IMG/VR virus record: IMGVR_UViG_2687453297_000002
Span: 1 to 24,666 of that record
Length of the DNA: 24,666 nucleotides
From: a virus
Taxonomy: Duplodnaviria; Heunggongvirae; Uroviricota; Caudoviricetes
Reading direction: 5' to 3' (one strand)
How positions within the stretch are numbered: position 1 is the first letter of the stretch; every line of letters begins with the position of its first letter. The notes beneath the pieces were generated by a model. It had not been told where the DNA came from and did no database searches. It saw only the letters and a list, made by a program, of their open reading frames with translations. Below are positions 6,131 to 7,120 of the stretch, in pieces. A program made the translations under genes and the position numbers.

Positions 6131-6340
6131 TCCACAAATAAAAAAGGCGCCATTTCTGGCACCCGTATCTGGGTTATAAAATTCAACTGATACTGATACC
6201 GGCTGTAGATTTCTTCATCACAACAACAAGAAGGTCGCTGATACTGGTCGTTGGCGTCCAGTTATTAGCACCATATGAAGAAACAGGTGATGCTGCCAAC
6301 TTACTGATTTAGTGTATGATGGTGTTTTTGAGGTGCTCCA

Positions 6341-6616
6341 GTGGCTTCTGTTTCTATCAGCTGTCCCTCCTGTTCAGCTACTGACGGGGTGGTGCGTAAC
6401 GGCAAAAGCACCGCCGGACATCAGCGCTATCTCTGCTCTCACTGCCGTAAAACATGGCAACTGCAGTTCACTTACACCGCTTCTCAACCCGGTACGCACC
6501 AGAAAATCATTGATATGGCCATGAATGGCGTTGGATGCCGGGCAACCGCCCGCATTATGGGCGTTGGCCTCAACACGATTTTCCGCCATTTAAAAAACTC
6601 AGGCCGCAGTCGGTAA
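6341..6616 (+). CDS. insA: IS1 InsA (transposition repressor)
   Basis: 91 aa [43 protein letters not shown]…, the canonical InsA zinc-finger protein. Confidence 0.95.
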
Positions 6617-7038
6617 CCTCGCGCATACAGCCGGGCAGTGACGTCATCGTCTGCGCGGAAATGGACGAACAGTGGGGATACGTCGGGGCTAAATCGCGCC
6701 AGCGCTGGCTGTTTTACGCGTATGACAGGCTCCGGAAGACGGTTGTTGCGCACGTATTCGGTGAACGCACTATGGCGACGCTGGGGCGTCTTATGAGCCT
6801 GCTGTCACCCTTTGACGTGGTGATATGGATGACGGATGGCTGGCCGCTGTATGAATCCCGCCTGAAGGGAAAGCTGCACGTAATCAGCAAGCGATATACG
6901 CAGCGAATTGAGCGGCATAACCTGAATCTGAGGCAGCACCTGGCACGGCTGGGACGGAAGTCGCTGTCGTTCTCAAAATCGGTGGAGCTGCATGACAAAG
7001 TCATCGGGCATTATCTGAACATAAAACACTATCAATAA
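6535..7038 (+). CDS. insB: IS1 InsB reading frame (expressed as InsAB' transposase by -1 frameshift)
   Basis: 167-codon open frame overlapping the insA 3' end; carries the canonical IS1 InsB sequence. Confidence 0.9.
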
Positions 7039-7120
7039 GTTGGAGTCATTACCGATTAGATGAATATTTATCGCGCAGTGACATCATTTTTTAATAATAG
7101 TTCAAAAAAAAGGGCGTACA

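Follow-up and report, generated by a model that had tools for sequence, protein, structure and literature searches.

IS1 promotes adjacent deletions, is the classical element of this kind, and prefers AT-rich targets. Its members are recognized by a length of about 768 bp, by imperfect terminal inverted repeats of about 23 bp that start with GGTGATGCTGCCAACTTACTGAT, and by two reading frames, insA and insB', which are joined by a −1 frameshift at an A6C motif. In the classical IS1 adjacent deletions at gal/chl, a complete IS1 is left behind, one of its flanks is kept while the other gives way to distant DNA from the same molecule in the same orientation, the breaks fall at the IS termini, and no target duplication is present. 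The locus described here, which lies in a stretch of 24,666 nucleotides analysed as a whole (the window), is like these deletions in each of those respects; it differs from them in that the event is reconstructed from its end product, extends over 21.5 kb, and is located inside a prophage. The closest described prophage is DLP12/qsr' of Escherichia coli K-12 and B, the prophage of nmpC, with which the window shares the gene order ren, emrE, ybcK, ybcN, ninE, ybcO, rusA, ylcG, and quuD; in the DLP12-type order this is continued by a porin gene on the opposite strand and then by essD-rrrD-rzpD. Both have a region disrupted by insertion sequences (in E. coli B, an IS1 in nmpC), and in both the late region is largely missing. 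However, DLP12 is situated at argU and has kept its lysis cassette, whereas the prophage of the window is situated at icd, carries sitABCD and an intact porin gene, and appears to have lost both the lysis cassette and the structural genes in a single IS1-bounded step. The case is therefore presented as ordinary prophage decay by an insertion sequence, a process that is already known, and it adds nothing new on the mechanism.

The features on which the analysis is based are listed in Table 1. The earlier note on this DNA had described a complete IS1, and the coordinates, inverted repeats, open frames, and Pfam domains all agree with that description. The element begins with GGTGATGCTGCCAACTTACTGAT and ends with ATCAATAAGTTGGAGTCATTACC, and the 23 nt at each end are the terminal inverted repeats of IS1; a single copy of the right-end 23-mer is present in the window, where chance alone would give 0. 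The insA and insB products match the Pfam families Zn_ribbon_InsA, HTH_Tnp_IS1, and DDE_Tnp_IS1 (PF03811, PF12759, and PF03400; E-values from 1e−21 to 1e−78), and the A6C motif of the frameshift is found within the element as TTAAAAAACTC. In other words, the length, the termini, and the pair of frames joined at this motif are all those of IS1. The copy is 100% identical to many chromosomal and plasmid IS1 copies of E. coli, a species in which IS1 occupies a median of 11 places per genome having any.

Table 1. Positions of the features discussed, in the window unless another record is named
Feature	Position	Strand	Description
ISEc23 (IS66 family) in stf	1668..4199	−	2,532 bp
stf (side tail fibre)	4196..6124	−	642 codons, truncated by ISEc23
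J-stf spacer	6125..6182		58 bp
Terminator-like hairpin and T-run in J-stf spacer	6145..6164	−	consensus match only
J remnant (tail-tip gene)	6183..6285	−	last 103 nt, i.e., 33 codons and stop
Left 9-bp flank GAAGAAACA	6277..6285		deletion endpoint inside J; DA33135 L006 12521..12529
Complete IS1	6286..7053	+	768 bp, insA and insB open
Left inverted repeat (IRL)	6286..6308		23 nt
insA	6341..6616		91 aa, open frame
insB	6535..7038		167 aa, open frame
A6C frameshift motif	~6589		in IS1
Right inverted repeat (IRR)	7031..7053		23 nt
Right 9-bp flank GATTAGATG	7054..7062		deletion endpoint in AT-rich porin-essD spacer; DA33135 L006 34010..34018
Remainder of native porin upstream DNA	7054..7120	+	67 bp left of 589-bp spacer
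nmpC/lc-type prophage porin gene	7121..8203	+	intact, 360 aa, ATG at 7121
Late antiterminator Q (quuD type)	8392..8775	−	Pfam Phage_antitermQ (E-value 9e−54) and SE15 annotation
nmpC::IS1 of BL21 (E. coli B)			duplication GGTTTCGGT
quuD::IS1 of S1-KEN-05-A			duplication TGAATGTCA
IS1 in essD-porin spacer of UPEC_U013			duplication GTGAATAAC
IS1 of FDAARGOS_1299	L002 8001..8768		abuts stf at equivalent of window 4346; chromosomal ymgF opposite
IS1 of MS20675	L007 4293..5060		~410 bp upstream of porin, DLP12-like prophage

A 9-bp target duplication is missing from the two sides of this IS1, whose flanks had already been described as non-matching: GAAGAAACA and GATTAGATG have the same base at 4 of 9 positions, and the ends of the element show no direct repeat, however short. 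Nor was any microhomology or shifted junction found that might hide a duplication, both junctions being blunt at the IS1 termini; on either side, the base with which the deletion starts differs from the end base of IS1, so that the placement of the junctions is unambiguous. A simple insertion at the porin site would instead read ...AATCGCATTGATTAGATG followed by the IS1 end, and, on the other side, the IS1 end followed by GATTAGATGAATATT. When simple IS1 insertions were collected from the same neighbourhood in other strains, all three carried a perfect 9-bp duplication (BL21, S1-KEN-05-A, and UPEC_U013; Table 1). Within the window itself, ISEc23 lies between two exact copies of an 8-bp target sequence, CCATTATA (1660..1667 and 4200..4207), and this duplication serves as an internal control for simple insertion and indicates that missing duplications are not general in this DNA. 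If the deletion came after the insertion of IS1, the absence of the 9-bp duplication is what would be expected. The exact breaks at the IS1 termini are a signature of transposase chemistry or of recombination between insertion sequences, and not of random illegitimate recombination.

A comparison with related intact prophages, which had been proposed as a check, located the endpoints to the base in the prophages of E. coli DA33135 and SE15. Positions 1..6285 of the window correspond to positions 6245..12529 of DA33135 L006, and the sequence from 7054 onward corresponds to positions 34010..36001, in both cases at 100% identity. The two blocks are collinear and in the same orientation in DA33135, where they are separated by the DNA that is absent from the window (L006 12530..34009, 21,480 bp); the corresponding gap in SE15 is 24,066 bp, the larger size being due to an ISEc12 inside J in that strain. 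Both values fit the loss of roughly 20 kb or more that the earlier note had anticipated. A 34-codon frame on the minus strand (6284..6183), which had been suspected to be the 3' remnant of a late gene, proved to match the last 33 codons and the stop codon of J: gpJ of DA33135, 1132 aa in length, ends in the same residues, and the identity at the DNA level is 100%. The distal end of the prophage occupies the first 6,285 positions of the window, where the J remnant is accompanied by stf, ISEc23, sitD, and two small genes. Shigella, considered as a source because of its many IS1 copies, gains no support, the flanks being 100% identical to those of E. coli SE15 and DA33135.

The right-hand block (7054..24666) matches the icd-adjacent lambdoid prophage of E. 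coli SE15, DA33135, Eco889, and others, which is of the sitABCD-carrying type of E. coli B2 strains, without a single substitution. Over 17.6 kb, one 1-bp indel separates it from SE15, the window having G5 and SE15 having G6 at position 22061; equal bit scores suggest that the other close relatives share the G6. The shorter run alters the reading frame of a small DUF1317 gene at its 3' end; it is a genuine frameshift or else a consensus error of the assembly in a homopolymer. Uninterrupted endpoints are widespread, that of the porin side being found in 3,120 genomes and that of the J side in 1,083, and the prophage sequence occurs at ≥99% identity in hundreds of records. Since the uninterrupted sites are common, the deleted arrangement is derived and rare. 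The reverse polarity, in which the arrangement of the window is ancestral and its relatives gained a late module, was ruled out by the truncated J fragment together with the wide occurrence of the uninterrupted sites.

IS1 is a multicopy repeat, and contigs could have been collapsed or mis-joined across copies lying at both sites or elsewhere in the genome; the G5/G6 difference, which is typical of long-read consensus errors, indicates that the assembly is not necessarily flawless. However, its continuity across both the 2.5-kb ISEc23 and IS1 points to a long-read or finished assembly that would easily span a 768-bp repeat, and both flanks are otherwise base-perfect. Moreover, a mis-join would still need an IS1 at exactly these two sites, and none was present there in any genome searched. 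We therefore consider an assembly artefact to be highly improbable. In the relatives, the flanks of the IS1 do not adjoin each other, though they are collinear and have the same orientation, and the breaks coincide with the IS termini, as is the case for the product of an adjacent deletion; taken together, the DNA was almost certainly deleted at an IS1.

The earlier note had attributed the loss to an IS1-mediated adjacent deletion. The location of the deletion at the IS1 ends and the collinearity of the flanks bear this out, while the mechanism itself is favoured only, since no intermediate was found; we assign it a probability of roughly 55%. In this mechanism, IS1 would first insert into the AT-rich spacer between the porin gene and essD. 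The transposase would then join the IS1 ends to a second target, within J and 21.5 kb away on the same molecule, in an intramolecular replicative transposition, the event known as an adjacent deletion. The product would be one chromosomal IS1 between the new target, GAAGAAACA, and the old target, GATTAGATG, and the intervening DNA would be lost as a non-replicating circle bearing the other IS1 copy. The GC content around the target is 26% on the porin side against 48% on the J side. The porin side is favoured as the first target because it is AT-rich and because the spacer has received IS1 in other strains; an adjacent deletion starting from that side is in turn favoured because it needs one insertion rather than two, and because IS1 is the classical element for such deletions. 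The product alone can tell neither which endpoint was the original insertion nor whether adjacent deletion or recombination between two IS1 copies produced it.

The same product, a flank, an IS1, and a flank with blunt junctions, would also be generated by RecA-dependent homologous recombination between two IS1 copies in direct orientation, with loss of the interval; J and the DNA upstream of the porin gene would each have received one copy beforehand, in independent insertions that each made a 9-bp duplication. Adjacent deletion and recombination between insertion sequences are the standard causes of missing duplications, the latter being a frequent one (PMC11708052). The abundance of IS1 in E. 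coli suits such an event, but it calls for two separate insertions in one prophage in addition to the recombination, and neither insertion was found in 5,426 complete genomes, despite the hundreds of records of this prophage at ≥99% identity. We regard this route as rather unlikely.

Neither junction, queried as 120-bp sequences, was found in the 5,426 complete E. coli genomes, and exact 37-mers across either junction were not found in GTDB species representatives or in JGI metagenomes. Several apparent junction matches (H31–H33, H61, and H62) turned out to be joined pieces with IS1 at other positions, and the E. coli B strains were rejected as a match to the right junction, their IS1 lying inside nmpC with a normal duplication. 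An IS1 with a duplication at one endpoint, as expected of the precursor of an adjacent deletion, was therefore absent from the samples searched, an absence that is compatible with its existence elsewhere. The lack of a precursor with IS1 at either endpoint would also suit a one-step origin, with an IS1 that arrived from, e.g., a plasmid joining its ends to two distant targets and no resident copy being involved; we know of no demonstration of such insertion-with-deletion for IS1. Plasmids of E. coli commonly carry identical IS1 copies. That the sampled genomes include no intermediate is weak evidence. One-step insertion-with-deletion has been raised for some IS5 and IS481 events, whereas in long-term evolution data a pre-existing insertion sequence was traced for 14 of 14 events that combined an insertion sequence with a deletion (PMC11708052). 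For these reasons a one-step origin seems quite improbable, and adjacent deletion by a resident IS1 is retained as the favoured reading.

IS1 copies that lack duplications were also found in two related prophages, those of FDAARGOS_1299 and MS20675, and in both strains the element borders missing prophage DNA. In FDAARGOS_1299, the arrangement looks like an IS1-bounded deletion of the distal end of stf, ISEc23, sitABCD, and neighbouring chromosomal genes; in MS20675, an ISAs1 pseudogene and PAAR-like genes, which are not phage genes, occupy the place of the lysis and late genes. These two copies resemble that of the window in having non-matching flanks, but they differ from it in their endpoints and in the segments lost, and the three deletions appear to be independent events. 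Other insertion sequences have also entered the same prophage. An ISEc12 (IS21 family) interrupts J in SE15 (L004 21063..23365) and is absent from DA33135, and an ISEc23 insertion identical to that of the window is annotated in both strains. By these comparisons, sister strains have had this prophage inactivated by different insertion sequences in independent events. With stf already cut by ISEc23 in all the relatives examined and J cut by ISEc12 in SE15, decay driven by insertion sequences was already under way.

The stf product matches Pfam phage_tail_N (E-value 5e−69). Its start was placed at the ATG at 6124, where a mechanical list of open reading frames gives a GTG at 6130. When the gene was reconstructed without ISEc23 it comprised 685 codons, the last 45 of which are split off by the element; in the reconstruction, the stf stop codon would overlap the start codon (ATG at 1530) of the small gene that follows.

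The missing DNA contains 25 whole annotated genes, from the essD holin gene through the terminase, head, and tail genes, together with most of J. The lysis part comprises essD, rrrD, and an Rz-type lysis gene, along with a DUF6979 gene and two small ORFs, and the packaging part comprises the small and large terminase subunits (Nu1/A). These are accompanied by the head genes (head-tail joining, portal, S49 protease, decoration, major capsid, and FI) and by the tail genes through the tape measure and L/K/I, and J has been lost except for its last 103 nt. As had been claimed, no lysis, terminase, head, or tail genes lie between the porin gene and stf in the window, and all of them are located in the gap as defined in DA33135 and SE15. 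A lambda-type cosN 12-mer, GGGCGGCGACCT, the cohesive-end sequence of lambda, is found in the missing DNA, with about 180 bp between it and the small terminase gene downstream, and was absent when sought in the whole window.

The missing DNA also contains a promoter-like site, ATGGCA-17-TATAAT (DA33135 L006 33867..33839), that points at essD, and a strong terminator-like hairpin about 190 nt beyond it (L006 33649..33628), likewise directed toward essD. Both are located in the spacer between the porin gene and essD, and not between Q and the porin gene. The geometry of this candidate pair, identified by consensus matches only, resembles that of the lambda pR'-6S-tR' region. If the pR'/tR'-like pair is real, late transcription would start across the porin gene from Q, and the late promoter was probably lost with the deletion. 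A scan of the whole window against Rfam yielded no family at the gathering score.

What remains is a lambdoid early region in the lambda order, with int/xis by icd, exo-bet-gam, repressor/cro-like genes, O/P, the nin region, and Q, an assignment that rests on the match of window 7054..24666 to the SE15 annotation; no late module (S/R/Rz, cos, terminase, portal, capsid, and tail genes through J) is present in the window. The remnant retains int, xis, exo/bet/gam, the repressor region, O/P, the nin region, Q, the porin gene, the broken stf, and sitABCD. Non-phage cargo is unusually plentiful (36..854, 10713..11756, 12106..13632, and ~13888..14220), and all of it has been kept after the deletion. 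Of this cargo, sitD, with which sitABCD ends, is at the distal end of the prophage; the nin/early-right region contains emrE, the ybcK serine recombinase gene, and a gene for an alpha/beta hydrolase. Judged by this gene content, the element is a defective remnant and not a complete prophage. The proposal that it can neither lyse its host nor form particles holds at the level of prediction, the lysis and structural genes being gone.

On the right-hand side of the IS1, the porin product matches Pfam Porin_1 (E-value 3e−151), and the gene is annotated as 'porin OmpC' in the relatives. Q is convergent with the porin gene, and no late operon remains for it to act on. The IS1 had been described as abutting the nmpC promoter region; it ends 67 bp from the porin ATG, but a promoter scan of these 67 bp detected no consensus promoter. 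A mapped nmpC promoter was not found in the literature searched. Because no consensus promoter is present in the remaining DNA, the IS1 event may have removed the promoter region of the porin gene. The right end of IS1 and its new flank (7031..7075) contain a −35-like TTGGAG, spaced 17 bp from AATATT and about 50 bp ahead of the porin ATG. The pair may be a weak hybrid-promoter candidate, which scored below the threshold of the scan; fusion promoters formed by IS1 are documented (Prentki 1986, as cited in PMC9330008). Porin expression may therefore be altered.

We consider it improbable that the deletion reflects selected domestication rather than neutral decay, or that it arose by a one-step IS1 insertion-with-deletion without a resident precursor. 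If domestication were true, the costly or lethal late functions (holin, endolysin, spanin, cos, structural genes, and late promoter) would have been purged at once, the cargo useful to the host (sitABCD, the porin gene, emrE, and immunity) would have been kept, and the right end of IS1, in place of the upstream region of the porin gene, could rewire porin expression.

The deletion, with endpoints known to the base, would explain why this prophage cannot lyse cells or make particles. The lineage concerned (relatives of SE15 and ST131-type strains) otherwise has the same prophage intact, together with the virulence-associated sitABCD iron/manganese transporter. With cos gone, the remnant would not be packaged by a helper phage, and for the same reason the sit locus is predicted not to be phage-mobilisable here; the finding may thus be of use for prophage annotation and for predicting the phage mobilisation of the sit locus.
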